Assembly (NCBI GenBank): GCA_963788395.1
Contig: CAWBGV010000031.1
Span: 7,116 to 71,115 of the forward strand
DNA from: Candidatus Doudnabacteria bacterium
Lineage (GTDB): Bacteria; Patescibacteriota; Doudnabacteria; UBA920
Length of the DNA stretch: 64,000 bases
Reading direction: 5' to 3'
A model generated the notes under the pieces. It ran no database searches. It was given only the letters and a program-made list of their open reading frames with translations, and was not told the DNA's origin. Shown here piece after piece: positions 15,225 through 48,220 of the stretch. The stretch's first letter is position 1. Every line of letters begins with the position of its first letter. The position numbers and the translations under genes are program-made.

Positions 15225-16235
15225 ATGTTCTTCTCCAAAACAAAATCTATTTTAGGAATCGATATCGGTACCTCTAATATTAAAGTAGCGCAAATTTCTC
15301 ATTCTGGACAGCCCTTGCTGGAAACCTATGGAATTGTCAATGTTCCCTATCAAATCGGCACCAAAAACGACGAACGGGTCATAGCCAACATGGGATCCAT
15401 TTTACGGACCCTTATCCAGCGTTCCGGAGCTACCGCCAAGCGCTGTATTATCAGCTTTCCCAATAGTTCCGTGTTTACCTCGGTGGTAGAATTACCTAAA
15501 ATGACCGAAAACGAGCTAAATTCCGCCGTAGAATTTGAGGCAAAAAAATATATTCCCTTAACTTTAAGCGAAGTTGACCTATCCTGGAGTATTATAGCTA
15601 ACACCGGCCAAGATAATATGCAGAAAGTTTTGTTAACTGCTGTACCTAAGCAGGTAACTCAAAACTACATGAAAGTTTTTGAACTGGCCCAACTAGAACC
15701 GGAGGTCGGCGAAATCGAAGCCTTGGCCCTTATTCGATCATTAATCGGAAGCGTTCCCATAAGTTGTGTTATAATTGATATAGGAGCTAAAAGCACCGGG
15801 CTAAATATTATTGAAAATGGTTTTTTGCGGCTTTCCAGAAACCTCAACGTTGGCGGCGATACCGTCACCAATAAAATTGCTCAGTCACTGCACATAAGTA
15901 CAGTACGGGCCGAGCAGTTTAAAAAGGATTTCGGAGTCAGCGGCACAACTTTTATTCCGGAAACGATTAAGCCGGTGCTCGACGTTATAAAAAGTGAAAC
16001 AAAACAGCTGTTAACAATCTACCAATCCCACAACATGCAGGTTGAAAAAGTGCTGTTGGTAGGCGGGGGAGCCAGTCTGCCAGGGATCATTGGCTACTTT
16101 GGTGATTTAGGGGTTAAAATTGAACTTGGTAATCCGCTCCAGGCGATTGGTTACGCGAAAGAGATGGAGCCTGTTCTAAAGCGGTACGCATTAAATCTCC
16201 CGATTGCGATTGGATTAGCCTTGCGCAATGAATAA
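15225..16235 (+). CDS. pilM: Type IV pilus assembly protein PilM (actin-like ATPase fold)
   Basis: ILGIDIGTSNIKVAQI..., a second phosphate motif IIDIGAKSTG, and LLVGGGASLPGI. Confidence 0.85.
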   Translation: MFFSKTKSILGIDIGTSNIKVAQISHSGQPLLETYGIVNVPYQIGTKNDERVIANMGSILRTLIQRSGATAKRCIISFPNSSVFTSVVELPKMTENELNSAVEFEAKKYIPLTLSEVDLSWSIIANTGQDNMQKVLLTAVPKQVTQNYMKVFELAQLEPEVGEIEALALIRSLIGSVPISCVIIDIGAKSTGLNIIENGFLRLSRNLNVGGDTVTNKIAQSLHISTVRAEQFKKDFGVSGTTFIPETIKPVLDVIKSETKQLLTIYQSHNMQVEKVLLVGGGASLPGIIGYFGDLGVKIELGNPLQAIGYAKEMEPVLKRYALNLPIAIGLALRNE

Positions 16236-16276: not shown

Positions 16277-16846
16277 ATGCCGCAAATTAATCTTTTAAAA
16301 CAAAGCTCCACCACATCCCACATTATGAGGGGGAGTCTTAATGGAGTTTTGGTTAAAATTTTGGCAGTAGTGTTAGTCGGTGTCTTGGGCTGGTACGCCT
16401 GGATGTTTTTTGAAACCTCTAAAATTTCGGCCAGTAACGACGCCTTAGCTATCCAGATAAGCCAGGAGCAAAACCAATTAAAGAATTTTACGAATCGCAG
16501 CGAAATTTTAACGCGCCAAGCCCAGTTGCAGCAATTTAATACTTTAGTCGAAAATCATATTTACTGGTCAAACCTATTTCCAGAGTTAGCCCGGGTTACT
16601 CTCCAGGGCGCCGATTACACCGCTTTGAACGCTACCAATGACGGCACTATCAACGTTTCGGTTGCCGTACCGAATTTAGTGGACTTGGATAATTTTTTAC
16701 AAGTTTTTGATCTAACCGATATCAATAAAAGTTTTAGCAATTTGACGATTGGTTCGGTCAGTCAAGATAGTATAACCAATACCGTCCGGGTTGACGTTAA
16801 GTTTAATTTTGACACAGGCTTACTTCAATACCACACAGGCAATTAA
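16277..16846 (+). CDS. pilN: Type IV pilus assembly protein PilN-like
   Basis: N-terminal MPQINLL (the INLL motif that binds PilM), a single TM segment, a coiled-coil region, and its position after pilM. Confidence 0.7.
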   Translation: MPQINLLKQSSTTSHIMRGSLNGVLVKILAVVLVGVLGWYAWMFFETSKISASNDALAIQISQEQNQLKNFTNRSEILTRQAQLQQFNTLVENHIYWSNLFPELARVTLQGADYTALNATNDGTINVSVAVPNLVDLDNFLQVFDLTDINKSFSNLTIGSVSQDSITNTVRVDVKFNFDTGLLQYHTGN

Positions 16847-16879
16847 CAGTTCGGGCGCGACAGCGCTTGATTGGAACCT

Positions 16880-17497
16880 ATGAATATCCCTATTCCGAAA
16901 CAGATGTTTAAGACTCAGGCCCCCAAAAGCGGCATGACCTTTAATATTTGGCACGTTGTTTTGCTGGCTGCGGTTATTGGTATTTTGATTTGGCAGTTTT
17001 GTTTGCCAAAGCTCAACGCCATGCAAGCCGCTCAAGCCACGGCCACTACGCTCAAGAGCCAGCAAACCAACATCACGAACAGTCAGGATACTCTTAAGTC
17101 ACTGCAGGCAAAAATCCAAAATGGCAGCAATAGCCTGGCTGAATTAGACGAAGCACTGCCGCTCCAAAGCAATACCATAGTCCTGCAGCTCATTTTACAG
17201 CAGCTGGCTTCGTATTCCAATATTACGCTTAACAGCATTTCAGTTACCGATAATAGCAGCTCAATCATTGCTGGTAACCGAGCTCTTTTAGCCGATCCTT
17301 ATGATGCTTCCCGCAGTTTAAAAACCATTAGTGTTAATTTGGCGGTAACCGGAACGTTCCCCCAATTTGAAAATTTCCTGCAAAAATTAGAAGATAGCGC
17401 CCGGATTATGGATATTCAGGAATTGGGTATCACCGCCGGAAAAGGCGACCAGTTGAATATTACCCTGTCCTTGACCGCTTATTATTACGCCCCCTAA
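16880..17497 (+). CDS. pilO: Type IV pilus assembly protein PilO-like
   Basis: TM segment WHVVLLAAVIGILIWQFCL, then a coiled coil and a ferredoxin-like C-terminal half, positioned after pilN. TTG 16871 is an alternative start. Confidence 0.6.
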   Translation: MNIPIPKQMFKTQAPKSGMTFNIWHVVLLAAVIGILIWQFCLPKLNAMQAAQATATTLKSQQTNITNSQDTLKSLQAKIQNGSNSLAELDEALPLQSNTIVLQLILQQLASYSNITLNSISVTDNSSSIIAGNRALLADPYDASRSLKTISVNLAVTGTFPQFENFLQKLEDSARIMDIQELGITAGKGDQLNITLSLTAYYYAP

Positions 17498-17824: not shown

Positions 17825-19576
17825 ATGGCCCAGCCAGTTACAACCAACTCCACTGCCTTTGAGCAGTTTTTGGTCAACAATGGTTTTATTGCCGCTCAGG
17901 TTCTGACCGAATTGCAGGCAGCCCAAGCCCAAACCGGAAAAACGATTCAGCAGCTGCTGCTGAGTCAGCAGGTTCTGGACGAAGAAGACTTGGCTAAAGC
18001 CAAGGCGGCTTTTTTTAATTTACCCTACGTAGATTTGCGGAAAAATCAAGTGCCTTCGGAAGTTTTGAGTTTAATCCCCCAGGAATCGGTGAATTTTTAT
18101 AATATTGTTCCGTTTGAGCTGAGCGACAAAACTCTGAAAGTCGCGATCATGGACCCGACCAACCTTTCAGCCCTGGAAGCTTTGGAATTTTTAGGACAAA
18201 AACAGAATCTCCAGGTCCAGCTCTATTTAGCTTCGGAGTCTTCCATCGATATAGTCATTGGGCGCAAAAAGAACCTCAAAAAAGTTGCGGAGCAGGCTTT
18301 AAAAGATATTCAAACTAAGGAGCAGACCGAAAAAAGACCGGCCGGAGGACTGAAAGAAGCCGATAAACCCCAGCAGGTTATTGAAGAAGCTCCAATTATT
18401 AAAATTGTCGACGTCATTTTAGCCAACGCCATAGAAGGGAATGCCTCGGATATTCATATTGAGCCTTCGGAAAAAGACGTTCGTGTCCGGTACCGGATCG
18501 ACGGCATGCTCCATACCTCGCTGATGCTGCCCAAAAGTGTGCACGCGGCTATCATGACTAGAATTAAGATTCTTTCGAACTTAAAAATTGATGAATCCCG
18601 CTTGCCGCAAGACGGCCGGTTCCATATGGACGTGGGCAAAAAATCGGTGGATTTGCGCGTTTCCATCCTTCCGCTCATTTATGGCGAAAAAATCGTCATG
18701 CGTATTTTGGACAAGAGCAGTAAAGCGCCGACTTTGGAAGATTTAGGATTGCGCGGCCGCGGTTTGAAGTGGGTCCAGGAGAATATTAAAAAAAATCACG
18801 GCATTTTTTTGATTACCGGTCCAACCGGCAGTGGGAAATCCACGACTTTGTATTCAATCCTCACCATTCTGAATCAGCCGAACGTTAACATTATTACGTT
18901 GGAAGATCCGGTGGAATACTTTATAGATGGAATTAACCAAAGCCAAATCAACGCCGATATTGGATTGACTTTTGCTTCCGGTTTGCGCAGTATCTTGCGG
19001 CAAGATCCGAATATTGTCATGGTTGGTGAAATTCGGGATAAAGAAACCGCCGAAATCGCGGTCCACGCCGCGCTGACCGGTCACTTGCTGTTTTCTACCC
19101 TCCACACCAACAACTCCATCGGCGCCATGCCGCGTTTGATCGACATGGGGATCGAACCTTTTTTACTGGTAGCTTCGGTTAATATAGTCATGGCTCAGCG
19201 CCTGGTGCGGAAAGTTTGTCCGGACTGCAAGAAGGAAATGCCGGTCAGTAAGCCGATTGAAGAAGAAATTAAAAAAAGCCTGATTGGCGTACCCCCGGAA
19301 TATTTGGAAGGTTTGGATCCAAAAAATATCAAAATTTACAAAGGCCAAGGCTGCGAAAAGTGCGGGCATACCGGCTACGTTGGGCGATATGGGATTTTTG
19401 AAGTCTTGCCGGTCGTACCGGAAATTCAAGATTTAGTTATGGGCAAAGCGTCAGCCCACACCATATACGAAGCTACTTTAAAAATGGGGATGATTACCAT
19501 GCAGCAAGATGGGATGATTAAAGTCATGCGCGGCGAGACCACCATCGATGAAATTATCAGAGTGACTACCGAATAA
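17825..19576 (+). CDS. pilB: Type IV pilus assembly (extension) ATPase PilB/GspE family
   Basis: N-terminal T2SSE_N-like domain, Walker A GPTGSGKST, Asp/His boxes (MVGEIRD, LVFSTLHTN) and a tetracysteine motif CPDCKKE...CEKCGHTGY. Confidence 0.9.
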   Translation: MAQPVTTNSTAFEQFLVNNGFIAAQVLTELQAAQAQTGKTIQQLLLSQQVLDEEDLAKAKAAFFNLPYVDLRKNQVPSEVLSLIPQESVNFYNIVPFELSDKTLKVAIMDPTNLSALEALEFLGQKQNLQVQLYLASESSIDIVIGRKKNLKKVAEQALKDIQTKEQTEKRPAGGLKEADKPQQVIEEAPIIKIVDVILANAIEGNASDIHIEPSEKDVRVRYRIDGMLHTSLMLPKSVHAAIMTRIKILSNLKIDESRLPQDGRFHMDVGKKSVDLRVSILPLIYGEKIVMRILDKSSKAPTLEDLGLRGRGLKWVQENIKKNHGIFLITGPTGSGKSTTLYSILTILNQPNVNIITLEDPVEYFIDGINQSQINADIGLTFASGLRSILRQDPNIVMVGEIRDKETAEIAVHAALTGHLLFSTLHTNNSIGAMPRLIDMGIEPFLLVASVNIVMAQRLVRKVCPDCKKEMPVSKPIEEEIKKSLIGVPPEYLEGLDPKNIKIYKGQGCEKCGHTGYVGRYGIFEVLPVVPEIQDLVMGKASAHTIYEATLKMGMITMQQDGMIKVMRGETTIDEIIRVTTE

Positions 19577-20137: not shown

Positions 20138-21208
20138 ATGTATAAAGCCAATGAACTCGAACTGAGTAAACTGCTTTCCGTAGTTTTGGAGCGTGACGCC
20201 TCAGACTTGCACTTAATAGTCGGGGAACCGCCCATTGTTCGGGTAGATACCCAGTTGCTCCGCCTCGATACCTATCAGGTTTTAAGCAACGATAATATCA
20301 ACGAGTTTTTAAATATTTTGTTGACCCCGGTACAGAAACAGGTGTTTGCGCAGGCCATGAACATCGATTTTTCCTATGCTTTTAAAGATAACATCCGGTT
20401 CCGGGTCAATGCCTATCGCCAAAAAAATGTCACCGGAGTTGCTTTGCGGGTCGTGCCAAACCGTATTAAAAGCATTGAAGAACTGAATTTACCCCCTATT
20501 TTTCGTAAATTTTCTGACCGCAAGCAGGGATTAGTGCTGGTAGTCGGGCCGACTGGACATGGAAAATCCACAGCGTTAGCCGCCATGGTTAATGAAATTA
20601 ATAACACCCGGAGCGAACATATTTTGACGATTGAAGATCCGGTAGAATTTATTTTCACACCTGCTAAATCCATTATTAGCCAACGCGAGGTGTTAATTGA
20701 TACGCCAGATTTTCCTTCGGCTTTAAAAGCAGCTTTGCGCGAAGATATTAATGTTGTGCTTGTTGGTGAAATGCGGGATTTAGAGTCTATTTCTACAACT
20801 TTAACTATTGCGGAAACGGGGCATTTGGTGTTTGGAACTTTGCACACGAATGACGCCGGCCAAAGCATTGACCGTATTGTAGACGTTTTTCCTTCCACCC
20901 AGCAAGCCCAGGTCAGGAGTCAGTTGGCAAGCGTGTTGGTCGGAGTCATATCGCTCCGCTTGCTGCCTAAAATTGGCGGCGGCCGCATTCCCGCGTATGA
21001 AGTTTTGATTTCCAATCACGCGGTCCGCAATATTATTCGCGAAAACAAAATTTACGAGATTCCTAATGTTATCCATACCAACCTGGAAGAAGGCATGGTC
21101 CCGCTCGATAAAACTTTGGCTCTATTAGTAAAACAAGGTCAGGTAGAATTTGAAGTCGCCCAAAACTTTGTGGTGGATAACGAATATTTTCTTTCCCTGG
21201 TGTCTTAA
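20138..21208 (+). CDS. pilT: Type IV pilus retraction ATPase PilT
   Basis: About 356 aa; ASDLHL, Walker A GPTGHGKST, VGEMRD, LVFGTLHTN, and an AIRNLIRE-like HAVRNIIRE. Confidence 0.9.
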   Translation: MYKANELELSKLLSVVLERDASDLHLIVGEPPIVRVDTQLLRLDTYQVLSNDNINEFLNILLTPVQKQVFAQAMNIDFSYAFKDNIRFRVNAYRQKNVTGVALRVVPNRIKSIEELNLPPIFRKFSDRKQGLVLVVGPTGHGKSTALAAMVNEINNTRSEHILTIEDPVEFIFTPAKSIISQREVLIDTPDFPSALKAALREDINVVLVGEMRDLESISTTLTIAETGHLVFGTLHTNDAGQSIDRIVDVFPSTQQAQVRSQLASVLVGVISLRLLPKIGGGRIPAYEVLISNHAVRNIIRENKIYEIPNVIHTNLEEGMVPLDKTLALLVKQGQVEFEVAQNFVVDNEYFLSLVS

Positions 21209-21271: not shown

Positions 21272-22477
21272 ATGAAATTTCTTTATAACGCGAAAAATAA
21301 AGACGGACTAATTAAGACTGGCACCGTGGTAGCCAGCGATCAGGTGCGTGCTGAGCAGCTTTTGGCTGAGAACGGTTTAATAATTATTAGTTTGCAGGAA
21401 CAGCAGGAAGATATATTCGAAAAGTTGGATATCTTTCAAGGTTCGGCCAGCAATAAAGATATTGTCTTGTTTTCCCGCCAATTGGCGACTCTGATATCCG
21501 CCCGCGTGCCAATAATTCAGGCTCTGCGGATATTAAGCGAACAGCTGACAAATAAATTTTTGTTAAAAACTTTGCAGGATTTGATAGCCGGCGTCGAGAA
21601 CGGCGAGAATCTAAGCACCGCCATGGCCCGCCATCCTAAAGTTTTTGGCACTGTGTATGTGAGTTTGGTTAAATCCGGCGAAGCTGCGGGCGGTCTGGAT
21701 AAGTCGTTGACCTATTTAGCCGACCAGTTGGAAAAAGATTATGAATTAAAGGGCAAAGTTAAAGGGGCAATGACCTATCCGATTTTCGTGATTTCGGCTT
21801 TATTGATCGTAGGCTTTTTGATGTTTAAATTTATTTTACCCAACCTGACCGTGACTCTGCAGGAGCAGGGGGGGACGTTGCCGCCGGTGACTTTGGCGAT
21901 TATTGCCCTGACTAATTTTATAAACCATTTTTGGTGGTTGGTTTTAATCATGATTGCCGGTGCCATTTTTGGTTTTAAATTTTGGATTAGCACCCAAGTG
22001 GGCCGCTACCAGTGGGATAAGCTAAAAATTCATTTTCCGATTATTGGCGATATCTTCCAAAAAATTTATCTGGCCCGTTTTTCCAGAAATCTTTCTACGC
22101 TTATCTTGGGCGGTATTCCTATTATTAAGTCTATGGAAATCATCAGTGACTTAATTAATAACGTGATTTATAAAGAAATAGTCATGGATGCTGTCAATAA
22201 AATTTCCAATGGCAGCGGCATCGGAGCAGCCCTGAGCGGCCACCCTGAGTTTCCGGCCATTGTTATCCAAATGGTTGAAGTGGGGGAGAAGACTGCCCAG
22301 CTGGACGACATTTTGGCTAAACTTGCGGTGTTTTATGAAAAAGAAGTTGATTCTAAAGTCTCAACCCTAACCACTTTGCTAGAACCGCTAATCATGATTA
22401 TTTTGGGTATTGGAGTAGGAGTGTTGGTGGCCGGTATTTTGTTGCCAATTTATAACCTGGCTAGTACTTCGGGATAG
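21272..22477 (+). CDS. pilC: Type IV pilus platform protein PilC (T2SS F family)
   Basis: Two T2SSF repeats (FSRQLATLISARVPI... and FSRNLSTLILGGIPI...), 3 TM segments, and C-terminal LLPIYNL. Confidence 0.9.
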   Translation: MKFLYNAKNKDGLIKTGTVVASDQVRAEQLLAENGLIIISLQEQQEDIFEKLDIFQGSASNKDIVLFSRQLATLISARVPIIQALRILSEQLTNKFLLKTLQDLIAGVENGENLSTAMARHPKVFGTVYVSLVKSGEAAGGLDKSLTYLADQLEKDYELKGKVKGAMTYPIFVISALLIVGFLMFKFILPNLTVTLQEQGGTLPPVTLAIIALTNFINHFWWLVLIMIAGAIFGFKFWISTQVGRYQWDKLKIHFPIIGDIFQKIYLARFSRNLSTLILGGIPIIKSMEIISDLINNVIYKEIVMDAVNKISNGSGIGAALSGHPEFPAIVIQMVEVGEKTAQLDDILAKLAVFYEKEVDSKVSTLTTLLEPLIMIILGIGVGVLVAGILLPIYNLASTSG

Positions 22478-22778: not shown

Positions 22779-22845
22779 AATTAATGTAAACTCATAAATA
22801 AACAGGTTACTTATGTTTATTTACTACGGATTGGGGGTGAAAATT

Positions 22846-23331
22846 TTGAGAAACAAAAATCAAAAAGGATTCACCTTAATCGAATTGTTGGTGGTTATTG
22901 CCATTATCGGTCTTTTGGCATCCGTGGTCTTATTGGCCTTAAACTCGGCTCGAGCCAAGTCTAGAGATGCAAAAAGAATTTCCGATGTCCAACAGATGGT
23001 GAGCGCCTTTGAATTGTTCTATAACGATGCTTCGTCTTACCCAACAGGTACTGGATATATTACCAGTCCGGGCGGCGCGGTACTCGGTTCAGCAACAATG
23101 CAAGCTAATAGTATTACCCTAACACCGACCTATTTGGGTCAGACCCCAACCGCTCCGTTGCCGGCTGACGGCAACTGTACCGCAGCAGCTTCGGCAGTTC
23201 CGGGAACAGCGACGAATGCCTATACCTACTGGTCTAACGGCGTAAGCTATACCTTAACATTCTGTTTAGGTGGACAAACCGGAGGTTATACCGCCGGCGG
23301 CCACTGGGCTTCTCCGCAAGGAATTCAATAA
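22846..23331 (+). CDS. pilA: Type IV major pilin (class III signal peptide)
   Basis: Prepilin motif (L/M)RNKNQKG|FTLIELLVVIAIIGLLASVVL with Glu+5. TTG 22846 has a GGGGGTG SD 6 nt upstream and gives an 8-aa leader; the alternative ATG 22813 gives an atypical 19-aa leader. There is a C-terminal Cys pair. Confidence 0.8.
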   Translation: MRNKNQKGFTLIELLVVIAIIGLLASVVLLALNSARAKSRDAKRISDVQQMVSAFELFYNDASSYPTGTGYITSPGGAVLGSATMQANSITLTPTYLGQTPTAPLPADGNCTAAASAVPGTATNAYTYWSNGVSYTLTFCLGGQTGGYTAGGHWASPQGIQ

Positions 23332-23481: not shown

Positions 23482-23862
23482 ATGTTCTTTGCCTCGAAAA
23501 TTTGGCAAACCCTAACAGTCATAGCCATGGCTGTTGTTTTGTTAATCGTCATCTTTTGGGGGTTGGCTGTTGGCAAGCTCCAGGCCCAGTCTGAGTACGT
23601 GCTTGCGGCAGCTCAAAATGTTCGACAAGGTCTGGAGTATTTTTATTCAGACCAACAGCGGTTTCCTACGGCCTATGAATTCGCGGAAAATACCATTATG
23701 GAAAAATATTTTAATCAATTCCCGCCATTGCAAATTACCAGTTCCAACTGTTCCCAAAATTTTTTATACACCAGAACCGATACTAATGATTATGCTTTGC
23801 AGTACTGCCTCCCGGAAAAAGCCGATGGCCTGGCGGCAGGCTGGCATAGTTTGAACAATTAG
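23482..23862 (+). CDS. Pilin-like protein lacking a prepilin cleavage motif
   Basis: N-terminal TM segment WQTLTVIAMAVVLLIVIFWGLAV without G|FTLIE. The body parallels the major pilin: EYFYSDQQRFP vs ELFYNDASSYP, and YALQYCLPEKADGLAAGWHS vs YTLTFCLGGQTGGYTAGGHWAS. Confidence 0.45.
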   Translation: MFFASKIWQTLTVIAMAVVLLIVIFWGLAVGKLQAQSEYVLAAAQNVRQGLEYFYSDQQRFPTAYEFAENTIMEKYFNQFPPLQITSSNCSQNFLYTRTDTNDYALQYCLPEKADGLAAGWHSLNN

Positions 23863-23898: not shown

Positions 23899-25887
23899 AT
23901 GAAACTACCCCGTTTTCCTTTCCCCAACGATACTTCGTTCGCCCTGCTGGCGGCGCTAACCCTTCTAGTGCCGTTGTTTTTTACTTTGAATACTTACGAA
24001 CACTATGAGACCGTGAAATTCGCCTTGTGGATGTTTATAGTCGGCGCGTTAGTTTTAGTTTTTGGTTTCCGGAAAAAAACAGATTCAGAATCCGCCACCC
24101 GTAAGACTGTGGTTGTGTACGAACCATGGTATTATGTTTTACTTGGTTTGTTTTTAGTAGTCGGTTTATTTTCAGCTCTGTATTCTTTGGATGTTAACGT
24201 GAGTTTTTTTGGATTTTATACCCGCTTTGATAACGGTTGGATTTTTTACGCCCTCTGGGCGGCATTAATATTTTTTTTACTGCAAAATGTAACCCGGGAA
24301 AAATATATCTTCTTACTGAGGATTTTAATTTTAGATAGCCTGGTAGTGGCTGCCTATGGAATTATGCAAAGTCTTGGCTTTGCTTTTTACACCGGTCCGA
24401 CGACCCAATTATTCCAGCGCGCCCCCAGCCTGCTGGGTAATCCTGATTTTTCCAGTATGTTTATAGTTTTGGCGCTGCCGCTGGTTTTGGTTTTTATGGT
24501 CCAGGCTAATCGCCGCTGGTCCAAATTTTACTACGCTCTTACCGCTTTGGCTATTATTTTTTGTACAGTTGTGCTTTCCAGCCGGGGAGCACTGGTAGCT
24601 TTGCTGGGAAGTTTATTACTCTGCGTGCTCGGCTTATGGCTATTTCGGGTCCGGCGGACGTATCTCTATTCGTTTGCCGCTGTCTTTGGTTTAGCGCTGC
24701 TGGCGTCCGGTCTATTTTTTAGTTTGGTCCGTCCCACTGTCTTACAGGCTACGGTCGAGCTGAATGAAACGAATATTAGCCAGCGCATTTGGGTTTGGGA
24801 AACAGCCTGGCAGGGGATTAAACAGTGGCCGTGGCTGGGCAGCGGGCTTGGTAACTTTTCCATAACCTTTGAGCATTTCCGGCCTATCTTCATGAGTGAT
24901 TTGGCCGGAGTGTTCGACGATGCCCACAATCTATTTATTAATCTAGCCGCGACCGGCGGGATACTATTTGTGCTCTTGTTTGTAGCGTTGCTGCTCTACC
25001 CGGTCATCCGTAACTTTCTGCGTCTGGAACGTGAGAAAGACCCCTTAGTATTGGCCGGGATGGGCAGTATTGCCGCGTTTATAATCGCCGCCTGCTTTAC
25101 TCCCGTAGTCATACCCTGTTTTTTATTTATGGCCATAGTGCTTTGTGGGTTGCTGTTGCCATTGTCCAAACAAATAACTTGGAACAAGGGAGCGATTTTT
25201 TCCGGAGTTTTTAAAACTGCCGGAAGTCTGATTATGCTCGCGGCCTTGGTTTTTATTGTTGCCGAACATTTGTTTTTTGCCGGCCGCCAAGAATATTTGT
25301 ATAACCAAAATTACGCGCTGGCTAACCGTTTATTGGTATGGGCGGTGGATTTAAACCCCACCAATCAACTCTACCGATTATACCGTACCGCCGCCCGGAT
25401 TGAACTGCAGGGAGCGCCGGCCGCGGGCCAAGTAGCCCAGACGGTCGCGGTTCATCCGTTGGATTCTAACAGCTGGGCCGAAGGGGCGCGCTTAGACGAG
25501 CTGTTGTATGAGCGTACCGGCCAAAAGCAATATATCGACGCCGCGGTAGTCAGTATGCGGCGGTCAATATCTCTGGATCTTTTTGCCGGTTATCACTACG
25601 CCCTTTTGAGCTACTATATCACTGAACAAGGCCAGTTAGGCCAAGCCAAAGAAATGGCTAAAACCAGTTTAGATTTATATCCTGACAATGTCCCGCCCTG
25701 GTTATTGCTGGCCCGCATCTATCAATTGGACGGTAAATGGAAGTCGGTAGAGGCTACCCTGGATTCAGTGGCAAAGAAGTACCCCCAGGACGAATTTTTA
25801 CATTTGATGGACCAAAGGGCCAACCAGGATCCCAAGGCTCAGCAAGTTCCGATTTACGTTCCGCCGCTCCAACCGGCATTGGAATAG
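23899..25887 (+). CDS. O-antigen ligase-like (Wzy_C family) polytopic membrane protein with C-terminal TPR repeats
   Basis: At least 10 TM segments. Wzy_C-type loop VLSSRGALVALLGS ... WLGSGLGNF ... DDAHNLFINLAATGG. The C-terminal ~190 aa is TPR-like (YALANRLLVWAVDLNPTN..., LARIYQLDGKW). Confidence 0.7.
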   Translation: MKLPRFPFPNDTSFALLAALTLLVPLFFTLNTYEHYETVKFALWMFIVGALVLVFGFRKKTDSESATRKTVVVYEPWYYVLLGLFLVVGLFSALYSLDVNVSFFGFYTRFDNGWIFYALWAALIFFLLQNVTREKYIFLLRILILDSLVVAAYGIMQSLGFAFYTGPTTQLFQRAPSLLGNPDFSSMFIVLALPLVLVFMVQANRRWSKFYYALTALAIIFCTVVLSSRGALVALLGSLLLCVLGLWLFRVRRTYLYSFAAVFGLALLASGLFFSLVRPTVLQATVELNETNISQRIWVWETAWQGIKQWPWLGSGLGNFSITFEHFRPIFMSDLAGVFDDAHNLFINLAATGGILFVLLFVALLLYPVIRNFLRLEREKDPLVLAGMGSIAAFIIAACFTPVVIPCFLFMAIVLCGLLLPLSKQITWNKGAIFSGVFKTAGSLIMLAALVFIVAEHLFFAGRQEYLYNQNYALANRLLVWAVDLNPTNQLYRLYRTAARIELQGAPAAGQVAQTVAVHPLDSNSWAEGARLDELLYERTGQKQYIDAAVVSMRRSISLDLFAGYHYALLSYYITEQGQLGQAKEMAKTSLDLYPDNVPPWLLLARIYQLDGKWKSVEATLDSVAKKYPQDEFLHLMDQRANQDPKAQQVPIYVPPLQPALE

Positions 25888-25915: not shown

Positions 25916-26704
25916 ATGATAATTCTGCTCTTTATTTTTGGGTTGCTGATTGGCAGTTTTTTGAACGTGGTAATTCTCCGTTTGCCGGCGGAAGAAGATT
26001 TAGGCGGCCGGTCCCATTGTCCCCGTTGCCGCCACCAGCTCAGCGCGGCCGAATTAGTGCCAGTATTCAGCTATCTTTTTTTACGCGGGCGCTGTAAAAA
26101 TTGCGGCCAGCCGATCTCATTTCGGTATCCTTTAATTGAGCTGGTAACCGGACTGCTGTTTGCGCTGGCTTGGGTTAGTGTTCATCCCGCAACTTTGGCC
26201 GGGTACATAGAGTTGGTCAAGGTAGCCTGCGTTTGTGCTGTTTGCCTGGTAGTTTTTATGGTTGATCTTGAGCATTTTTTAATTTTAGATCAGGTTATTT
26301 TTCCGGCTATAGTGCTAGTGGCTTTGTTAAACCTCGGTTGGGACTTGGCAGCCGGTCACGCGGTGTTTAACCTGTCTTCTGCCTTCAGTTCGGGGCTTTT
26401 GGCCGCGGCCGGTGCCGGATTGGCCTTTTTTGCGGTTTGGTACTTTTCCGGCGGTACTTGGATGGGTTTTGGCGACGTGAAGTTGGCTTTGTTACTGGGG
26501 ATAATCTTAGGCTGGCCGCTGATCGCGGTAAATTTACTGCTGGCGTTTTTCTTGGGAGCTGCGGTTTCCGTTATCTTGTTGATCCGAGGCAGTCATTTGA
26601 AGACTCAAGTTCCATTCGGGACTTTTTTGAGCTTTGCATGCGTAGTCACTATCTTTTGGGGCCCGCAGCTACTTCACTGGTATTTGGGTTTATTGGGTGT
26701 TTAA
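25916..26704 (+). CDS. pilD: Prepilin peptidase / N-methyltransferase (A24 family)
   Basis: Cys cluster CPRCRHQL...CKNCGQPIS, catalytic Asp motif GFGDVKL, and the second Asp region (FMVDLEH). Confidence 0.9.
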   Translation: MIILLFIFGLLIGSFLNVVILRLPAEEDLGGRSHCPRCRHQLSAAELVPVFSYLFLRGRCKNCGQPISFRYPLIELVTGLLFALAWVSVHPATLAGYIELVKVACVCAVCLVVFMVDLEHFLILDQVIFPAIVLVALLNLGWDLAAGHAVFNLSSAFSSGLLAAAGAGLAFFAVWYFSGGTWMGFGDVKLALLLGIILGWPLIAVNLLLAFFLGAAVSVILLIRGSHLKTQVPFGTFLSFACVVTIFWGPQLLHWYLGLLGV

Positions 26705-26747
26705 TGGTATAATAAATAAAATACAACAACATCCCGTTCCATATTAT

Positions 26748-27392
26748 ATGGCAACTTCTCCCTCATCCCTCAAAGCAGGTTTTACCTTGATCGAACTTTT
26801 AGTCGTGTTATCGATTATGGCCATTATTATGTCTTTGGTCACGGTTAATTTTGCCGGCCAGCGGGCTATGCGCAACCAGCAAATTTCGGAAAATCAATTG
26901 GTCAGCAATATTCGAGTGGTGCAGAATTACGCTCTCTCTTCACGGAATATTTATGGCACCCAGCCGGTGGAATATTATGTGATGAAGTTCGACCTTTCTA
27001 AGCCTTATCAGTACACGATTGAGGCTATGTACAACACGCTGAGTACTCCGACTTTGGTAGATATTCAAACGGTTCAGCTTTCGGGTAATTCGCGTTTACA
27101 AAGTCCAATCCTTATAAATTTAGAAGGGGGCACCCAGCAGTCCGTTACTGGTTGCGCTTTGCTGGTCTTTAAAGAACCGTTTGCCAGAATTCTGACCAAC
27201 AACAGCTGTACCGCCAACGGTTTTGGTAGCGGCGATTCTTATAACCAAGTTCTTAATTTTGTGACCAATAACTCCGGCACTACGGTCAATGCGGACTCCA
27301 GCATGGTGATTTCTTTAATTGACAGCGGCGGCGGCGTGACTCCTAAAGCCGTGACCATAAACGGAGCGACTGGTTTAGTTTCGTTCCAATAA
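26748..27392 (+). CDS. Minor pilin / pseudopilin (FimT/GspH-like)
   Basis: MATSPSSLKAG|FTLIELLVVLSIMAIIMSL. The ORF track's start at 26697 adds 17 unlikely residues. Confidence 0.7.
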   Translation: MATSPSSLKAGFTLIELLVVLSIMAIIMSLVTVNFAGQRAMRNQQISENQLVSNIRVVQNYALSSRNIYGTQPVEYYVMKFDLSKPYQYTIEAMYNTLSTPTLVDIQTVQLSGNSRLQSPILINLEGGTQQSVTGCALLVFKEPFARILTNNSCTANGFGSGDSYNQVLNFVTNNSGTTVNADSSMVISLIDSGGGVTPKAVTINGATGLVSFQ

Positions 27393-27396
27393 ATGT

Positions 27397-28068
27397 ATGG
27401 GTAAGAAAAAACAAACAGGACAAACGTTAATAGAAACCATGGTCGCGGCGTTTATTTTGATTATGGGGATTACGGCCGCGTCCAGTTTGGCCACATTCTC
27501 TTTGGATAACTCCACCGAAATTACGAAAGAGATTGTTGGGACGGGTTTGGCCCGGGAAGCTTTGGAGGCCGTGAAAAATATGCGTGATACGAATTGGTTG
27601 TGGAATACTTTAAGCAATCAATGTTATAACTATGTTACTAATCAACCGACCGGCGGAAATTGCTACCAAAACTGGCTGACCGCTTATTACACCATTCCAA
27701 ATTCCAGCAGCGGCTCCACCAATACATTACAGATTAATTTAACTCCCGGCCAGAAATTTTGGAGCTTGCAATCCCCGGGCTCCAACCTGTGGGGGCTGAA
27801 CCTGAATACTAATACGACCAATACGCTCTTTACCGAATTTTATATTCCTTCGGGCGCCAGTGTTGGCACCTCTGGCTATTATCGCGAGGTCACCATTACC
27901 GCCATTACGACTTCGCCTTTTAACGAAACTTATCCCGGGCCGGAACTTAAAGTTACTTCCCAAGTTTGGTGGATAGACAAGCGCTGTCCGGCTTCGCCCA
28001 CCTGGCCCACTGCCAGCGGCTGTAAAATTGAGCTCGATGAATACCTGACTAATTGGAGAGATTTTTAG
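27397..28068 (+). CDS. Minor pilin (PilV-like)
   Basis: MGKKKQTG|QTLIETMVAAFILIMGITA, with Glu+5 present. Confidence 0.65.
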   Translation: MGKKKQTGQTLIETMVAAFILIMGITAASSLATFSLDNSTEITKEIVGTGLAREALEAVKNMRDTNWLWNTLSNQCYNYVTNQPTGGNCYQNWLTAYYTIPNSSSGSTNTLQINLTPGQKFWSLQSPGSNLWGLNLNTNTTNTLFTEFYIPSGASVGTSGYYREVTITAITTSPFNETYPGPELKVTSQVWWIDKRCPASPTWPTASGCKIELDEYLTNWRDF

Positions 28069-28073
28069 GTTAT

Positions 28074-28790
28074 ATGAACATGAAACGGGCGGATCAACAA
28101 GGTTTTACGTTAATGGAGATCGTGGTAGCCACGACGATTTTTGCGATAGTTGCCGCGGCGATGATGTCTTTATTTAACTATACTTTAAAAATTAACCGCA
28201 AGACCGAAGCCTTGCGCCAGGCCAGCCAGGGCATGCGCAATTTGGTGGAATTTATTGTTAAAGAAGTCCGCAATGGCCAGATAGATTATTCAGTAATCAA
28301 TGGTACAGTTATTGCGCCCCTGCAACCCTGGACCGCGGCCAATTCTCCCTGTCCGGTTTCATCCAGCGGCGTGGGTAATGCCAACAGTAATACGGCGACC
28401 ATTTATGGGCGCAGTAACGTAGGTCTCACTGGCAAGGCCGATAACGCTCTGGGTATTATTACCACCGACGATGACCGCGAATGCATTTATTTGGCCGACA
28501 AGAACGGCAATCCGGTATCGTATAGCAGCTCCACGCCCTTTAATGGTGCCCAGTTGATGATGAATAAAAACGGGAATATTTATTCTTTAGATCCCTCAAA
28601 TTTTACCGTAGCGTATGCCCAATTTGGGGTTCAGCCTCTGTATGATCCCTACACCACCACGCCATCCCCGGCCAAACTTCAGCCTATGGTCCAAATGGAA
28701 TTTGAATTTATAGTTACCTTACCTACCGGGGAAACCTACCCGATTTATTATCAGACTGCCGCTTCGACCGGCCATTATGATGTACCATAA
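28074..28790 (+). CDS. Minor pilin (PilW-like)
   Basis: MNMKRADQQG|FTLMEIVVATTIFAIVAAAMMSLF. TTG 28053 is an alternative start. Confidence 0.65.
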   Translation: MNMKRADQQGFTLMEIVVATTIFAIVAAAMMSLFNYTLKINRKTEALRQASQGMRNLVEFIVKEVRNGQIDYSVINGTVIAPLQPWTAANSPCPVSSSGVGNANSNTATIYGRSNVGLTGKADNALGIITTDDDRECIYLADKNGNPVSYSSSTPFNGAQLMMNKNGNIYSLDPSNFTVAYAQFGVQPLYDPYTTTPSPAKLQPMVQMEFEFIVTLPTGETYPIYYQTAASTGHYDVP

Positions 28791-30611
28791 TATGCATACG
28801 CAAGGTCAAAAAAATAACAACACTTTTAAACAGGCGGGTATCACGTTGCTGCTGTCAATTTTGGTATTGGCTTCTATAATGGCTATTAGCTTAAGTCTGG
28901 CGTCGATTACGTTTTTAGAAATCCGGAGTTCTTCGGATTTGCAAAAAACTGAACCGGCTTTTTATTCCGCCGAGACCGGCACGGAGGAGTCGCTGTACGC
29001 AACCCGCCGCCAAATTTCCAATACTACTTTTGAAACTAACTCAGTGAACGGTATTAGCATTACGAGCACAACCCAAAAGATCAATAACCCAATTTTTCAG
29101 GATAAGGTGCTGCAGACTTCTAATAGTTATACGAATACCGCTAATAAGTATGAGTTATATAATATCAATAATTTTTATTCTCCCAGCTCCGGGGGCGACT
29201 ATAGTAAAATCAATATTACGTTTTTAAATACCGGCACTACCGGATACTTAAATGTGTACGACTGTAATTATAATCCTCAGGGCGAGTATAATTGTGATAG
29301 TTCAACCAGTTCGAATGTTACTGCCTACCCACCTCTGCAACCGGGGCAGACTGATACAATAAGTTTGCCCGCTACGGCAACGAATAATCGGTTAATTATC
29401 TATGCTTACTATACCAGCGCGACGGCTTATATTAATGTTGAGACTTATGGTACAGGCTCCAATCAAACCCCTAAGGGCATGCCTTTGACCGGTTCGGTAA
29501 ATGTGGATATAGCGGCCGCGGGTAGTAGTTTGACCCGCGAAATCCAGGTTAATATTCCAAATTCCTACACTTCGGGGGGAAGTTCGGTGGGGGGATACAC
29601 CCACCACAGGGTTATAACCATAAATGGCGCCCAGATTAGTACGGTCAATCACACTACGCTGAATTATTTTCCCGTATTGATTAATTTTAGTGATCCGACT
29701 TTTAAATCTGCTTCAAATGGGGGTGAAATCCAAAGCCCCAATGGATACGATATTGTTTTTAGCTCCGACCCGGTCGGTAATTCTCCACTTAATTTTGAGC
29801 AAGAAAATTATTCTGCCACTAATGGTCAGATTGTCTATTGGGTCCAAGTGCCAACCTTAATCAATGGTTCTAGCACTCCAATTTATATGTGGTACGATAA
29901 AGCCGGCGTGAATTCGTTCCAAAGTGCAGGTAGTCCTTGGGACAGCAATTTTGAGGGAGTTTGGCATTTGCCCAATGGTACTGTTTTAAGCGCTAATGAT
30001 TCCACGGGCAATGGTAATAGCACTAATACTTTTAATGGCGTTACCGCCGTGGCTAGCCCTCTTGACGGGCCGCCGCTATAACAAGCGACAGTCAATACCT
30101 TCGCGTTCCCAACTCCAGCAGCATGAATGGTTGGTCAACCCAAACGGTTAGTTTTTGGGTTAAAGCCCAGAATTCTATGGATAACTATGGGCGTTTTCTT
30201 GAAAAAGGCGGTAACAATGAGTGGACCATTATCAGAAATGGCTCGAATAATACCGTTGCTCAGGCGACCATTGGCACTAACTCCGTGTGCAATGTCAGCG
30301 GCGCTAGTATTTTTGACGGTCAATGGCATATGGTCGACGCAACTTTTAACTATAGTACGGGCGCTGAACAATTATATGTAGATGGGACTTCGAGCGGCTC
30401 AGCGACCTGCGCTCCCGTGGCTTCCAACAGGAATGGTGATTTGTTCTTTGGGACCTATGGTGGCGCTCCGGGAACTTATGGATCGCCCGGGGACTTGGAC
30501 GAGGTTGAGCTTTCCAATACTATACGCTCTGCTGACTGGATCAATACAGAGTACTATAACCAAGTTTCAGGTTCTACCTTCTACAGTGTGGGTGGCGAAC
30601 AAACTCCTTAA
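28777..30611 (+). pseudogene. PilX-like N-terminal anchor fused to DUF2341 and LamG (concanavalin-A-like lectin) domains; frame broken by 1 nt at the GGG run 30067-30069
   Basis: N-terminus is QAGITLLLSILVLASIMAISLSLASITFLEIR (PilX_N type). DUF2341-like sequence: GYTHHRVITINGAQIS...LNYFPVLINF...YDIVFSSD...LNFEQENYSATNGQIVYWVQVPTL...TPIYMWY. The LamG domain starts in ORF 28777-30081 (WDSNFEGVWHL...) and continues in another frame: AAAITSDSQYLRVPNSSSMNGWSTQTVSFWVKA...DGQWHMV...LYVDG...GDLDEVELSN. Confidence 0.7.
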
Positions 30612-35170: not shown

Positions 35171-37228
<2,058 letters not shown>

Positions 37229-40509: not shown

Positions 40510-40573
40510 GTCTATTTGCTCCCGAGTAGAATTTTAAGATATACTAGTGTTACACCGGAGTAATCTAAAAAAA

Positions 40574-41503
40574 ATGGCCGCCGAAGACCAGAAAAAGAAT
40601 AATGAAGATTTAGGCCTGGGCTCAAAAGTTATCCAGGGTAACCGCACGCGTTTTGTAAATCGCGACGGGACTTTTAACGTCCATCGTAAAGGAATGTTTG
40701 AACGCGGCGCGTTTAGCCCTTACCACGCCATTTTGCAGGCTTCGTGGACCAGGTTTTTTTGGGGTGTTATTGCCTATTATATTTCGGCGAATGTTATTTT
40801 TACCGCGTTCTATTTACTGTGCGGAAAAAATGCTTTTCCGGCCATTGCTACCCTGGATGTCTCCCAGCGGGCCGGGCAATTATTTTTTTACAGCATTCAA
40901 ATAATTAGTACACTGGGCTCCAGTCCGCTGCATCCGGCGACTACGCTATCCGATATTGCCTTGGCCTTGGAATCGATGATTGGCTTGTTTGGTTTTGCGA
41001 TTGGCGCCAGCTTAATGTTCGCGCGATTTTCTAATCCGCCCACCAGAATTCTGTTTAGCAAAAAAGCGGTTATCGCCCCGTATAACAATATTAAGGCTTT
41101 TATGGTCCGGATTATTAATGGCCGCAGCAATGAATTAATTAACGTCAACGCGATTGTGACGGTTTCTTTAACCGACGCGGAAGGTAAGCGCGCGTTCCAG
41201 CGGTTGGCATTGGAACGTGATTCGGTCTATGTTTTTCCTTTGAGCTGGACGATCGTGCATCCGATTGAAGCCGATAGTCCTTTGTGGGGCTTAACCGCGG
41301 CCGATTTAAAAAAACGCGAAGCGGAATTTTTGGTTAACATTAGCGCTACCGATGAGGATCTTTCTAAGACCGTCTACGCTCGGTCTTCTTACTTGTACGA
41401 CGAAGTAGCTGTAGGAGCAAAATTCGTAAATATTCTCGAAAATGACGCTAACGGTGCCGTGGTAGTAGACCCAAAGCGGATAGGGGAAATAGAGAAAGTG
41501 TGA
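40574..41503 (+). CDS. Inward-rectifier (KirBac-like) channel homologue with atypical selectivity filter TLGSS
   Basis: Alignable by eye to KirBac over its full length: slide helix RFVNRDGTFNVHRKG, M1, pore helix FFYSIQIISTLGSSPLHP, M2, and a cytoplasmic Ig-like domain FSKKAVIAPYNN...FPLSWTIVHPIEADSPL. ATG 40574 is preferred over GTG 40547. Confidence 0.85.
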   Translation: MAAEDQKKNNEDLGLGSKVIQGNRTRFVNRDGTFNVHRKGMFERGAFSPYHAILQASWTRFFWGVIAYYISANVIFTAFYLLCGKNAFPAIATLDVSQRAGQLFFYSIQIISTLGSSPLHPATTLSDIALALESMIGLFGFAIGASLMFARFSNPPTRILFSKKAVIAPYNNIKAFMVRIINGRSNELINVNAIVTVSLTDAEGKRAFQRLALERDSVYVFPLSWTIVHPIEADSPLWGLTAADLKKREAEFLVNISATDEDLSKTVYARSSYLYDEVAVGAKFVNILENDANGAVVVDPKRIGEIEKV

Positions 41504-42425: not shown

Positions 42426-43096
42426 CAACTAATTTGGTCATCACAAATTGCTAGTCAATTACAAAAGATTAGAACAGACAAGGGTATATGGTGGATGCCT
42501 TGGTAATATGAGCCGATGAAGGACGTTGTAGCCTAACGAAAAGCCTCGGGGAGCTGGCAAACAAGCTTTGATCCGGGGGTGTCCGAATGGGGAAACCTAT
42601 GCACTGGAAGAGTGCATGCCTATATGTCGTGGGATATATAGCGCGGGAACCGTGCGAAGTGAAACATCTCAGTAGCACGTGGAAAATAAATCAATTGTCC
42701 GCCTTTGGCGGACATCGAGATTCCGTTAGTAGTGGCGAGCGAACGCGGATAGATATAGAAATTTATTCGTTGGACGAGTATATAGTAGTGTCCGGCGAAT
42801 AAATATCTATTAGCCCAAACCTAATTAGTGTTGTTGATATCGCAAGATTGAAACTTAAAGATTACAGTCGTTGTTAATTAGGCGTTATAAGTGGAAGTCA
42901 TTGTGAGGCTGTAACCTCACTGGGAATATAGTGTGCTGTTTAGCAGAACACGCCTGGAACGGCGGACCAAAGAGGGTGATAGTCCCGTATCGCGAAAAAC
43001 CATGCAATTTCCTGACTTTTTCTTGAGTACGACCAGACACGAGAAATCTGGTCGGAAATCAGGTCGACTAAGATCTAAGGCTAAATACTCATATTA

Positions 43097-43135
<39 letters not shown>

Positions 43136-43194
43136 CACCCCGGAAGGGGAATGAAATAGTTTCTGAAACCATATACTTACAAGGAGTGGAAGGC

Positions 43195-43460
43195 CGTATT
43201 CGTGTTGCGGGTTAGAAGTCTTAAGTTAGATTTTATAGCTAGTGCAAGAATTAGGTTTTTGAGAAGAATTAACCTAATTATTCTAATTTCTAATTAACCT
43301 AAATAATACCCAATATTGAAATGTCTAAAATTAGGACATTCTGATATTGTGATTTGTTTAGAAATTAGGTCAATTAGAATAATTAGAAATTTTGTCCAAT
43401 GAATTTTGCACGAGCGATAAAGTTTAATATTTAGGAAATCTTACCCGTAGCACGAATGGC
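43195..43460 (+). other. 23S expansion segment: ~250-nt AT-rich rod (TTCTAA/TTAGAA units) replacing a short hairpin (probably the helix 25 region)
   Basis: ccgtattcgtgttgcggg...cccgtagcacgaatgg closes the rod. The interior has ctaattattctaatttctaattaacctaaat ... atttgtttagaaattaggtcaattagaataattagaaatt. Confidence 0.7.
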
Positions 43461-43566
43461 TAACCGCGTGCCTATTGAAGAATGATCCAACGAGTTAATC
43501 TTCAGCAGCTTGATTAAGTCCTATCAAGGACGAAATCGTAGTGAAAGCGAGGATGAATAGTCCGTA

Positions 43567-43677
43567 AAAGTTTATAAAGTTCTTAAAGTTAGTAAAGTTC
43601 ATAAAGTAACTGCAGCAATGCCGGTACTTTATAACTTGATGAACTTGACGAACTTTATAAACTTTATGTTGCTGGAG
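43567..43677 (+). repeat. AAGTTATAAAG-unit hairpin (family member 4) inserted inside 23S rRNA
   Basis: aaaagtttataaagttcttaaagttagtaaagttcataaagta-actgcagcaatgccgg-tactttataacttgatgaacttgacgaactttataaactttat. It lies just upstream of the conserved gttagacccgaaaccc block. Confidence 0.7.
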
Positions 43678-44055
43678 TTAGACCCGAAACCCGCGTGAGC
43701 TACGCATGGCCAGGATGAACGTTATGTAAAAGTAACGGGAGGTCCGAACCCACTATTGCTGCAAAAATAGGGGATGAGCTGTGCGTAGGGGAGAAATTCC
43801 AATCGAACCGGGTGATAGCTGGTTCTCCTCGAAATAGCTTTAGGGCTAGCGTCGAGAGTTCCCTTGAGAGGTAGAGCACTGAATGGAAACCTGCTGCGCA
43901 AGCGGTAGGCTCCAACCAAACTCCGAATTCTCAAGATTAAGATCTCGGCAGTCAGTCCGTGAGGGCTAAGCTTCACTGGACAAATGGAGAAGAATCCACA
44001 CCATCGTCTAAGGCCCCCAAATCCTAGCTATAGTGCAAAGGATGTGGGGTTGCTC

Positions 44056-44092
<37 letters not shown>

Positions 44093-44192
44093 TAAAGAAA
44101 GCGTAACAGCTCACTGGTCAAGCGATCCTGCGCCGACAATATATAGGGGCTAAGCTAGGTGCCGAAGACATGGATCAGGGCGGAGCCCTGTA

Positions 44193-44338
44193 ATTCCCAA
44201 ATTACAAAACCCAAATAACAAATAAATTCCATCCGCCAAAGGCGGACAAAATTTCAAAAACTGCGATTGCGGTATATGGGTGTTTGAATTTTGTTTATTG
44301 GATATTGTTTGTAATTTGTTTTTTGAGATTTGGTGCTT
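44193..44338 (+). other. 23S expansion segment (~145 nt rod, probably the helix 45 region)
   Basis: cagggcggagccctgtaa ... ttacagagcttcgctctg closes the rod. The interior has caaaacccaaataacaaataaattcc-atccgccaaaggcggac-... ttgtttattggatattgtttgtaatttgtttt. Confidence 0.65.
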
Positions 44339-45300: not shown

Positions 45301-45462
45301 GGGCCCGCAGCGAAAGACCTCTCCCGACTGTTTACCAAAAACTTAGGTCCGTGCTAAAGCGCAAGCTGATGTATACGGGCTGATGCCTGGCCAGTGTCAG
45401 AAGGTTAAACCGGTTGGCGCAAGCTGATCGGCCAAGCCCTGATGAACGCCGGCAGTAACTAT

Positions 45463-47212: not shown

Positions 47213-47244
47213 TACGATGTCGGCTCATCACATCCTGGGGGTGA

Positions 47245-47281
<37 letters not shown>

Positions 47282-48213: not shown

Positions 48214-48220
48214 TTATATA

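Follow-up and report, generated by a model that had tools for sequence, protein, structure and literature searches.

The DNA analysed here, called the window throughout, is a stretch of 64,000 nucleotides (nt) from a Candidatus Doudnabacteria bacterium (GenBank assembly GCA_963788395.1, contig CAWBGV010000031.1, positions 7,116 to 71,115 of the forward strand), and it carries a type IV pilus gene cluster whose last gene, at 28777-30611 on the plus strand, is the subject of this study. As sequenced, the gene is divided between two reading frames by the lack of a single base. Analysis of both frames indicated with high confidence that together they are one gene, which encodes a modular minor pilin composed of an N-terminal carrier domain, a DUF2341-like region and a laminin-G-like (LamG) module of the concanavalin A-like (ConA-like) type. 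The parts of the gene are given below, with amino acid (aa) positions referring to the joined protein.

28777-30081, plus strand: upstream open reading frame (ORF) as sequenced, 434 aa; carrier domain and DUF2341-like region, then three out-of-frame residues (PPL)
28777-28839, plus strand: hydrophilic leader, aa 1-21, ending at Gly21; candidate prepilin-peptidase site G↓ITLLL, with Leu and not Glu at +5
28777-29586, plus strand: carrier domain, aa 1-270; predicted long N-terminal helix and 12-strand beta domain; Patescibacteria-specific family without a Pfam model
29587-30069, plus strand: DUF2341-like region, aa 271-431; Pfam match at aa 323-385 (nt 29743-29931)
30067-30069, plus strand: GGG run, one base short relative to the intact frame; any restored base gives a Gly codon (GGN)
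30069-30611, plus strand: distal reading frame, -1 relative to the upstream ORF; Laminin_G_3/ConA-like module; stop at 30609-30611

The upstream ORF ends with ...ASPLDGPPL at a premature TAA (30079-30081), and its truncated product corresponds to a public protein of 429 aa (P0001), which starts at the ATG at 28792 and is 100% identical to the window. The -1 frame is free of stops from 30066/30069 to 30611, a run of 181 codons whose chance at 45% GC is, by our own estimate, ~4e-5, and it contains an ATG-initiated ORF of 162 aa (30123-30611). Addition of one base at GGG 30067-30069 resulted in a product of 611 aa that reads ...ASPLDG-AAAITSDSQYLRVPNSSSMNGW... across the junction. This join had been proposed in a first-pass annotation made from the DNA alone, and its ORF coordinates as well as its joined sequence were reproduced exactly. 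Searches with the joined protein retrieved three intact orthologs, P0002 (642 aa), P0005 (622 aa) and P0007 (728 aa, with an extra immunoglobulin (Ig)-like insert), which showed 35-40% identity to the window protein over 97-99% of its length. In the alignment, PLDGAAA of the window protein lies opposite IDGGGN, VDSAID and IDGAGL of P0002, P0005 and P0007, respectively; the junction coincides with a conserved (I/V)DG(A/G) motif, and conservation runs on to the C-terminal ...RSADWI-TEY-NQ...F-SVG-E. The two ORFs were assigned to one gene because the intact orthologs align across the junction and the LamG match begins just past it, at a distance of seven residues in the joined protein.

Pfam analysis of the joined protein located Laminin_G_3 (PF13385) at aa 438-589 (nt 30087-30542), with 59.2 bits against a cutoff of 27.6 and an E value of 6.6e-16, the match spanning profile positions 3-150 of 151. 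In the module part, the scan returned Laminin_G_3 and Laminin_G_2 only, and no glycoside hydrolase (GH) family was matched. The first-pass annotation had named DUF2341 next to Laminin_G_3; while the latter was recovered, DUF2341 (PF10102) stayed below threshold in the window protein (19.0 bits, cutoff 23.4) and exceeded it in the orthologs P0005 (29.8 bits) and P0002 (23.5 bits). The DUF2341-like region is nevertheless the best-conserved part of the protein, with 40-53% identity to the orthologs. The corresponding values for the distal LamG part were 30-38%, and 31-40% for the intact orthologs among themselves. A Foldseek search with the full-length AlphaFold2 (AF2) model matched the module to pentraxins, the trans-sialidase lectin domain, domain 4 of AbnA, the carbohydrate-binding module (CBM) CBM40 of NanA and the binding domains of botulinum neurotoxins (BoNT), with E values from 1e-6 to 1e-3, and the best result of a PDB sequence search with the C-terminal part was neuronal pentraxin-1 (E 0.013). 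In addition, the DUF2341+LamG unit was found in ordinary secreted or surface proteins, in which a type I-like signal peptide is combined with TIG, fn3 or Big domains, which fits a module grafted onto the carrier.

The N-terminus of the window protein comprises a short, basic leader of 21 aa, ending ...KQAG↓ITLLLSILVLASIMAISLSLASITF, and about 26 hydrophobic residues that follow Gly21 directly and lack a glutamate at position 5 (Glu5). In this general sense, namely a leader, a Gly and a hydrophobic stretch, the pilin-like N-terminus described by the first-pass annotation is present. The AF2 model of the carrier (mean pLDDT, the predicted local distance difference test score, 82.4) consists of a predicted helix of ~58 residues (aa 20-78) followed by 12 beta strands forming a beta-sandwich, and this predicted arrangement of a long N-terminal alpha-helix and a globular beta domain is that of the pilin "lollipop". 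A carrier profile built from four sequences detected 60 proteins in a word-indexed database, and an exhaustive search with the carrier profile detected 143 cluster representatives at E<=1e-30, a number that rose to 250 at 1e-10 and to 910 at 1e-3. The carrier domain was invariably N-terminal in the matches, the proteins ranging in length from ~250 to ~900 aa. The family start motif is Q-x-G↓(V/I)-T-L-L-L-A-I-L, with Gly in 95/95 sequences, Leu at +5 in 92/95 and a median leader of 18 aa. It resembles a class III signal in which a hydrophobic residue has replaced Glu5, a change reported for the tip subunits PilX and GspK (PMC7541494).

The genes upstream of the carrier-LamG gene are the following.

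15225-16235, plus strand: PilM
16277-16846, plus strand: PilN-like gene, without a Pfam match
16871-17497, plus strand: PilO
17825-19576, plus strand: PilB
20138-21208, plus strand: PilT
21272-22477, plus strand: PilC
22813-23331, plus strand: major-pilin candidate, 172 aa
23482-23862, plus strand: small pilin-like ORF, 126 aa, with an N-terminal hydrophobic helix and without the G-FTLIE motif
23899-25887, plus strand: Wzy_C (O-antigen-ligase-like) and TPR membrane protein, 662 aa
25916-26704, plus strand: prepilin peptidase PilD (A24_N_bact and Peptidase_A24)
26697-27392, plus strand: minor pilin 1, GspH-like; G↓FTLIE; GspH at 43.9 bits, below cutoff
27397-28068, plus strand: minor pilin 2; G↓QTLIE
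28053-28790, plus strand: minor pilin 3; G↓FTLME

With PilM, a PilN-like protein, PilO, PilB, PilT, PilC, pilins, PilD, three minor pilins and the carrier-LamG gene, the pilus cluster in the window is complete. The three minor pilins (26697-28790) all have Glu5, matches to N_methyl/TIGR02532 and weak matches to GspH, PilV, GspI and GspJ; the carrier-LamG gene is the fourth after these H-, I- and J-like genes and has Leu in place of Glu5. Genomic context was compared in 20 related loci, made up of two ortholog contigs and 18 genome loci obtained with the N-terminal profile, which are labelled Candidatus Doudnabacteria, "uncultured Candidatus Saccharibacteria" or Patescibacteria group. The order PilD, minor pilins 1, 2 and 3, and finally the carrier gene was conserved in 20/20 loci wherever the contig reaches these genes, and the longer loci add PilT, PilC, pilin, the small ORF and the Wzy_C+TPR gene upstream. 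The first-pass annotation had described the carrier-LamG gene as the last of a minor-pilin operon and had expected its orthologs to be linked to pilus loci, and both points were borne out, the former in the window and the latter in all 20 loci. PilY1 is not a pilin, its signal peptide being of type I and its C-terminal domain a beta-propeller; no PilY1 beta-propeller domain was detected in the joined protein or in the other ORFs scanned, which included every window ORF above 480 aa and many smaller ones, and for these ORFs the earlier statement that the locus has no PilY1/PilC adhesin holds.

Two further genes of the cluster showed features of their own. The small ORF at 23482-23862, which keeps its position in nearly all related loci and has weak similarity to pilin, may encode a degenerate pilin-like protein. 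In all related loci that extend far enough, the Wzy_C+TPR gene is flanked by the pilin genes and PilD. Pilin O-oligosaccharyltransferases of the Wzy_C type exist (PglL/TfpO), and by analogy the protein encoded at 23899-25887 may be a pilin glycosylation enzyme.

The C-terminal part of the family is variable. The best 115 family representatives were tabulated, 38 of which are under 370 aa, a length consistent with the carrier only, and 77 are longer. The domains detected in the longer members were as follows.

Laminin_G_3: 25 of 77 longer members
DUF2341: 18 of 77
F5/8 type C: 13 of 77
NedA-like galactose-binding: 11 of 77
SpaA-like: 5 of 77
Big_1: 5 of 77
Malectin: 4 of 77
PA14: 3 of 77
DUF4082: 2 of 77
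Cohesin: 1 of 77
NHL: 1 of 77

The same variation was observed at the fixed operon position. In 9/20 related loci the last gene has no module and encodes 267-300 aa, while DUF2341+LamG is present in the loci L001, L002 and L017, Malectin in L004, a discoidin-type module in L011 and L018, and DUF4082 in L015. The same carrier family bears interchangeable carbohydrate-binding-type modules.

Because the same carrier bears such interchangeable modules in relatives, the role of a tip adhesin is the best reading of the window protein, and we hold with moderate confidence that it is a modular minor pilin of the Patescibacteria type IV pilus and a probable tip adhesin for glycans. PilD cleavage, tip location and glycan binding are what we infer for it. 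According to this proposal, PilD would cleave the carrier after Gly21, and the Glu5-less subunit would be the first to enter the pilus, assembly being primed by the three minor pilins; this order of entry is suggested by the place of the gene, which comes fourth ("K/PilX") behind PilD and three minor pilins with Glu5. The carrier-LamG protein would thereby end at the filament tip, where the DUF2341-LamG module (aa 271-611) would act as a lectin-type adhesin and bind a glycan of a partner cell. The likeliest target would be surface glycans of the microbe to which the episymbiont attaches. The first-pass annotation had likewise proposed a tip-located binding module, possibly for host-cell glycans; the module at the tip stands as the best reading, and as to its target, a microbial-host envelope is likelier than an animal glycan because the organism is a Candidate Phyla Radiation (CPR) bacterium.

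Several results weigh against the proposed role. No match to N_methyl (PF07963) or TIGR02532 was found in the window protein, and Glu5 is absent. The PilX_N (PF14341) match, which spans profile positions 1-50 of 51, reached 13.9 bits with the full protein and 15.2 bits with the carrier alone, below the threshold of 25.5. Foldseek of the carrier against the PDB returned no pilin, GspK or PilX, only jelly-roll capsids and CBMs (best E 2e-3), nothing was retrieved when the carrier alignment was used for a PDB sequence-profile search, and in the full-length AF2 model (mean pLDDT 68.6) the carrier part was good and the C-terminal half poor (pLDDT 35-85). The specific assignment of the N-terminus to the PilX_N type in the first-pass annotation therefore fails on both the Pfam threshold and the structural comparison. 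PilX_N membership across the family was rejected as well, a match being seen in only 1/77 long members at E <= 0.001 and 2/33 short members at E <= 0.1, and the GspK family gave no match to the window protein. The K-like resemblance of the protein is thus one of position and of the missing Glu5, not of demonstrable PilX_N or GspK family membership.

The missing pilin signatures and a globular part in which Foldseek detects no pilin fold would also suit a protein that is no filament subunit and stays uncleaved as a membrane anchor, acting as a surface lectin or as a membrane-retained primer or stopper of assembly that is co-expressed with the pilus. We regard this as unlikely, since the invariant Gly before the hydrophobic stretch and the short basic leader are what a prepilin peptidase requires, the position after PilD and three minor pilins is strict (20/20 loci), and GspK and PilX are genuine tip subunits of pseudopili and pili that likewise have no Glu5 (PMC7541494). 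Less probable still is a catalytic function of the ConA-like module, which would then attack the host cell wall as a glucanase, lyase or glycosidase. The ConA-like superfamily does include glucanases, modular pilins with peptidase modules exist (PMC8179133), and the top Foldseek matches belong to glycoside hydrolases and sialidases; these matches are, however, to their non-catalytic modules, all structural matches being lectin, CBM or pentraxin domains and none of them catalytic. Moreover, Pfam gave Laminin_G_3 and Laminin_G_2 and no GH family, and the sister modules in the carrier family (discoidin, malectin, PA14, DUF4082) are binding modules. Both alternatives therefore rank behind the tip adhesin.

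Sequence quality was examined through other interrupted genes of the window. A gene for a solute-binding protein (SBP_bac_1, plus strand) is split into 607-1206 (profile positions 6-122) and 1106-1963 (positions 123-303), and removal of one G from a GGGG near 1141 restored an ORF of 450 aa, which makes this the second frameshift at a G run in 64 kb. The ligA gene for NAD-dependent DNA ligase (35171-37228, plus strand) has an in-frame TAA at 36731-36733, after ...ENIVNSL and before AHRTVKLSRFIYALGI..., with the adenylation, OB and Zn-finger domains upstream and HhH and BRCT downstream, while the ortholog in L001 is one gene of 690 aa. The ligA interruption may reflect a sequence error; otherwise this normally essential gene would be split in an unusual way. 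The broken genes elsewhere in the 64 kb, including ligA, point to sequence quality. Two long-contig metagenome-assembled genomes (MAGs) of the related loci showed comparable defects: in L014 (7806-10158) separate ORFs encode the carrier and Big part and the DUF2341 part, and CTAGTAAGCATT contains an indel, and in L008 (2268-4311 and 7971-9494) a discoidin module has a garbled, frameshift-like end and a Wzy/TPR gene is split. The ORF pair 4211-4693/4650-8759 was also considered as a further frameshift and was rejected, the second ORF having its own signal peptide. Separately, the ORFs 57575-57961 and 57858-59303 (plus strand) overlap in different frames and contain alike, parallel beta-helix-like repeats (NCTVVD..., SNHVTLSSNTF...); 57575-59303 may be another frameshifted gene, and Big_3_5, in the second ORF, was the only domain detected.

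The one-base deficit at GGG 30067-30069 is probably a consensus or assembly error, and the organism itself very probably has an intact gene. The distal LamG frame has not decayed: it has no stop in 181 codons, and its identity to the orthologs is in the range of that between intact pairs. Against an error stand the run of only 3-4 G, which is no classic error hotspot, and the many family members that are naturally without a module, since such members imply that a truncated product could function and that a real frameshift would be tolerated. Nor was an independent assembly found that covers the G run. The same strain is present in the Logan assembly of run ERR11630400 (99.96% identical over 2647 nt), whose contig ends at window position 27562; exact-product look-ups returned none for P0001, the LamG ORF of 162 aa, the gene downstream or the third minor pilin in two start variants, and an exact-pattern scan of JGI metagenomes with GGG or GGGG returned nothing. 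A real frameshift, that is, a recent loss of the module, is accordingly a serious possibility, if the less probable one: the strain would make a 434-aa protein of carrier and DUF2341-like region without LamG, which would still work as the fourth minor pilin, with its adhesion specificity lost or altered. In its favour, the single mismatch to the Logan assembly over the 2647 nt is a synonymous single-nucleotide polymorphism and not an indel, the L014 ortholog is likewise split between carrier and module, and the 38/115 tabulated members short enough for the carrier only, together with the 9/20 loci that encode 267-300 aa, suggest that the module is dispensable for the core role. On the other hand, 181 distal codons that are open and conserved as in intact orthologs would require a very recent mutation, two further genes are broken in the 64 kb, including the normally essential ligA, and the L014 and L008 MAGs have other broken genes too. 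A programmed change, by ribosomal -1 frameshifting or by phase variation, in which the G run would act as an on/off switch for the lectin module, is highly improbable. The frames are indeed related by -1 at a short G run, and adhesins are often phase-variable, but GAC GGG CCG contains no X XXY YYZ slippery heptamer, a run of 3-4 nt is far below known slipped-strand tract lengths, the orthologs are in one frame at the site, and the second G-run frameshift affects an unrelated solute-binding-protein gene. For this window, the frameshift and the two nearby broken genes serve as a consensus-quality warning for the assembly.

Other features of the window were also recorded. The 23S rRNA gene (42467-47699, plus strand) measures 5.2 kb against a model of 2.9 kb and contains large insertions, with a LAGLIDADG homing-endonuclease ORF at 45556-46023; such 23S rRNA insertions are a known CPR trait. 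A 5S rRNA gene lies at 48099-48215, and no 16S rRNA gene was found in the window. Large surface or secreted proteins are predicted on the plus strand at 2788-4110, 48490-51126, 52604-56305 and 59419-61245, three with CAP (cysteine-rich secretory protein) domains and one with Big_7 and PA14, and these may be further adhesion or host-interaction factors. The 318-aa protein encoded at 40547-41503 (plus strand) matched the C-terminal cytoplasmic domain of inward-rectifier potassium channels (IRK_C, E 5e-22), which is unexpected in so small a genome.

Among known systems, the closest parallels of the window protein are modular pilins. PilC of Streptococcus sanguinis combines a pilin with an Ig-like and a ConA-like lectin domain, binds sialylated glycans and heparin-type probes, and was modelled at the tip (PMC9934059). 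Both proteins have a pilin-type N-terminus, an intervening beta domain and a C-terminal module of the ConA-like/LamG superfamily, both are encoded in a pilus locus, and both are proposed tip glycan binders. However, no sequence similarity between them was detectable in the PDB search with the C-terminal part, and the canonical class III signal peptide and very short pilin moiety of S. sanguinis PilC differ from the Glu5-less carrier of 270 aa, which is encoded in a four-minor-pilin (H-I-J-K-like) operon. In Nanosynbacter lyticus TM7x, a member of the Saccharibacteria, no other minor pilin of the respective locus is as large as PilX1 or PilX2, which are without predicted PilD signals and with lectin-like C-termini; PilX2 is needed for efficient host binding, in which the rhamnose polysaccharide of the host cell wall matters (PMC11623550). 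The TM7x proteins and the window protein have in common their origin in the superphylum Patescibacteria, the status of largest minor pilin, a locus with PilMNO, PilB, PilT, PilC and PilD, the lack of a predicted PilD signal and the proposed role of lectin-like tip adhesin, and TM7x locus one resembles the window cluster in gene content. PilX1 has a helix and a beta-jelly-roll for which structure searches gave carbohydrate hydrolases, lectins and capsid proteins, and the Foldseek matches of the window carrier are alike. In contrast, PilX2 has a beta-propeller and not LamG, and the window protein adds DUF2341+LamG past the jelly-roll carrier.

With GspK or PilX, the K subunit of the conserved H-I-J-K tip complex of minor pilins and pseudopilins, the window protein shares its place as the fourth gene after three minor pilins with Glu5, its own lack of Glu5 and its rank as the bulkiest subunit, expected to cap the filament (PMC7541494, PMC9934059); it differs in its sub-threshold PilX_N score and in the lack of a GspK family or structural match. 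In diderm bacteria the adhesin PilY1 is separate and docks on PilX, whereas the window protein combines subunit and adhesive module in a fusion. PilY1 and neisserial PilC share with it only the presumed role of a variable tip binding module on a conserved carrier, and are analogues rather than homologues. The designation as a PilY1 analogue in the first-pass annotation is apt as to the presumed function; with carrier and adhesin in one chain, the protein is nearer to S. sanguinis PilC or to TM7x PilX1/PilX2. Haloarchaeal TafC, a subunit of Tat fimbriae with a laminin-G-like domain, was modelled at the tip (PMC11821415). It similarly has a LamG-like domain placed distally in a filament subunit and was the only NCBIfam match of the window protein (NF052521). 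The label was rejected, as the match reached 22.1 bits against a cutoff of 410 and covered the LamG part only, a domain-level similarity, and TafC belongs to another assembly system, which involves Tat and donor-strand exchange.

The class of modular pilins is already known: a census reported more than 1,200 proteins in 264 architectures, with CPR included and PF13385 among the carbohydrate-binding modules, and required the IPR012902 motif (PMC8179133). The carrier family, being without the IPR012902 signature, would have been missed by that census. The added value of the present analysis is comparative and consists of an unannotated, Glu5-less carrier found across Patescibacteria, with a fixed operon position and exchanged lectin-type modules. 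It extends the idea of the modular pilin to a Glu5-less subunit in the K position that signature-based searches would miss. We suggest tentatively, and consider it rather doubtful as yet, that the carrier family is a general host-recognition device of Patescibacteria, in which a fixed tip scaffold would carry an exchangeable C-terminal lectin module that sets the host cell-wall glycan and thereby the host; if this is true, host range would be predictable from the module. Patescibacteria are mostly uncultivated episymbionts whose host recognition is largely obscure, and a carrier with swappable modules offers a candidate for host specificity that can be read from sequence.

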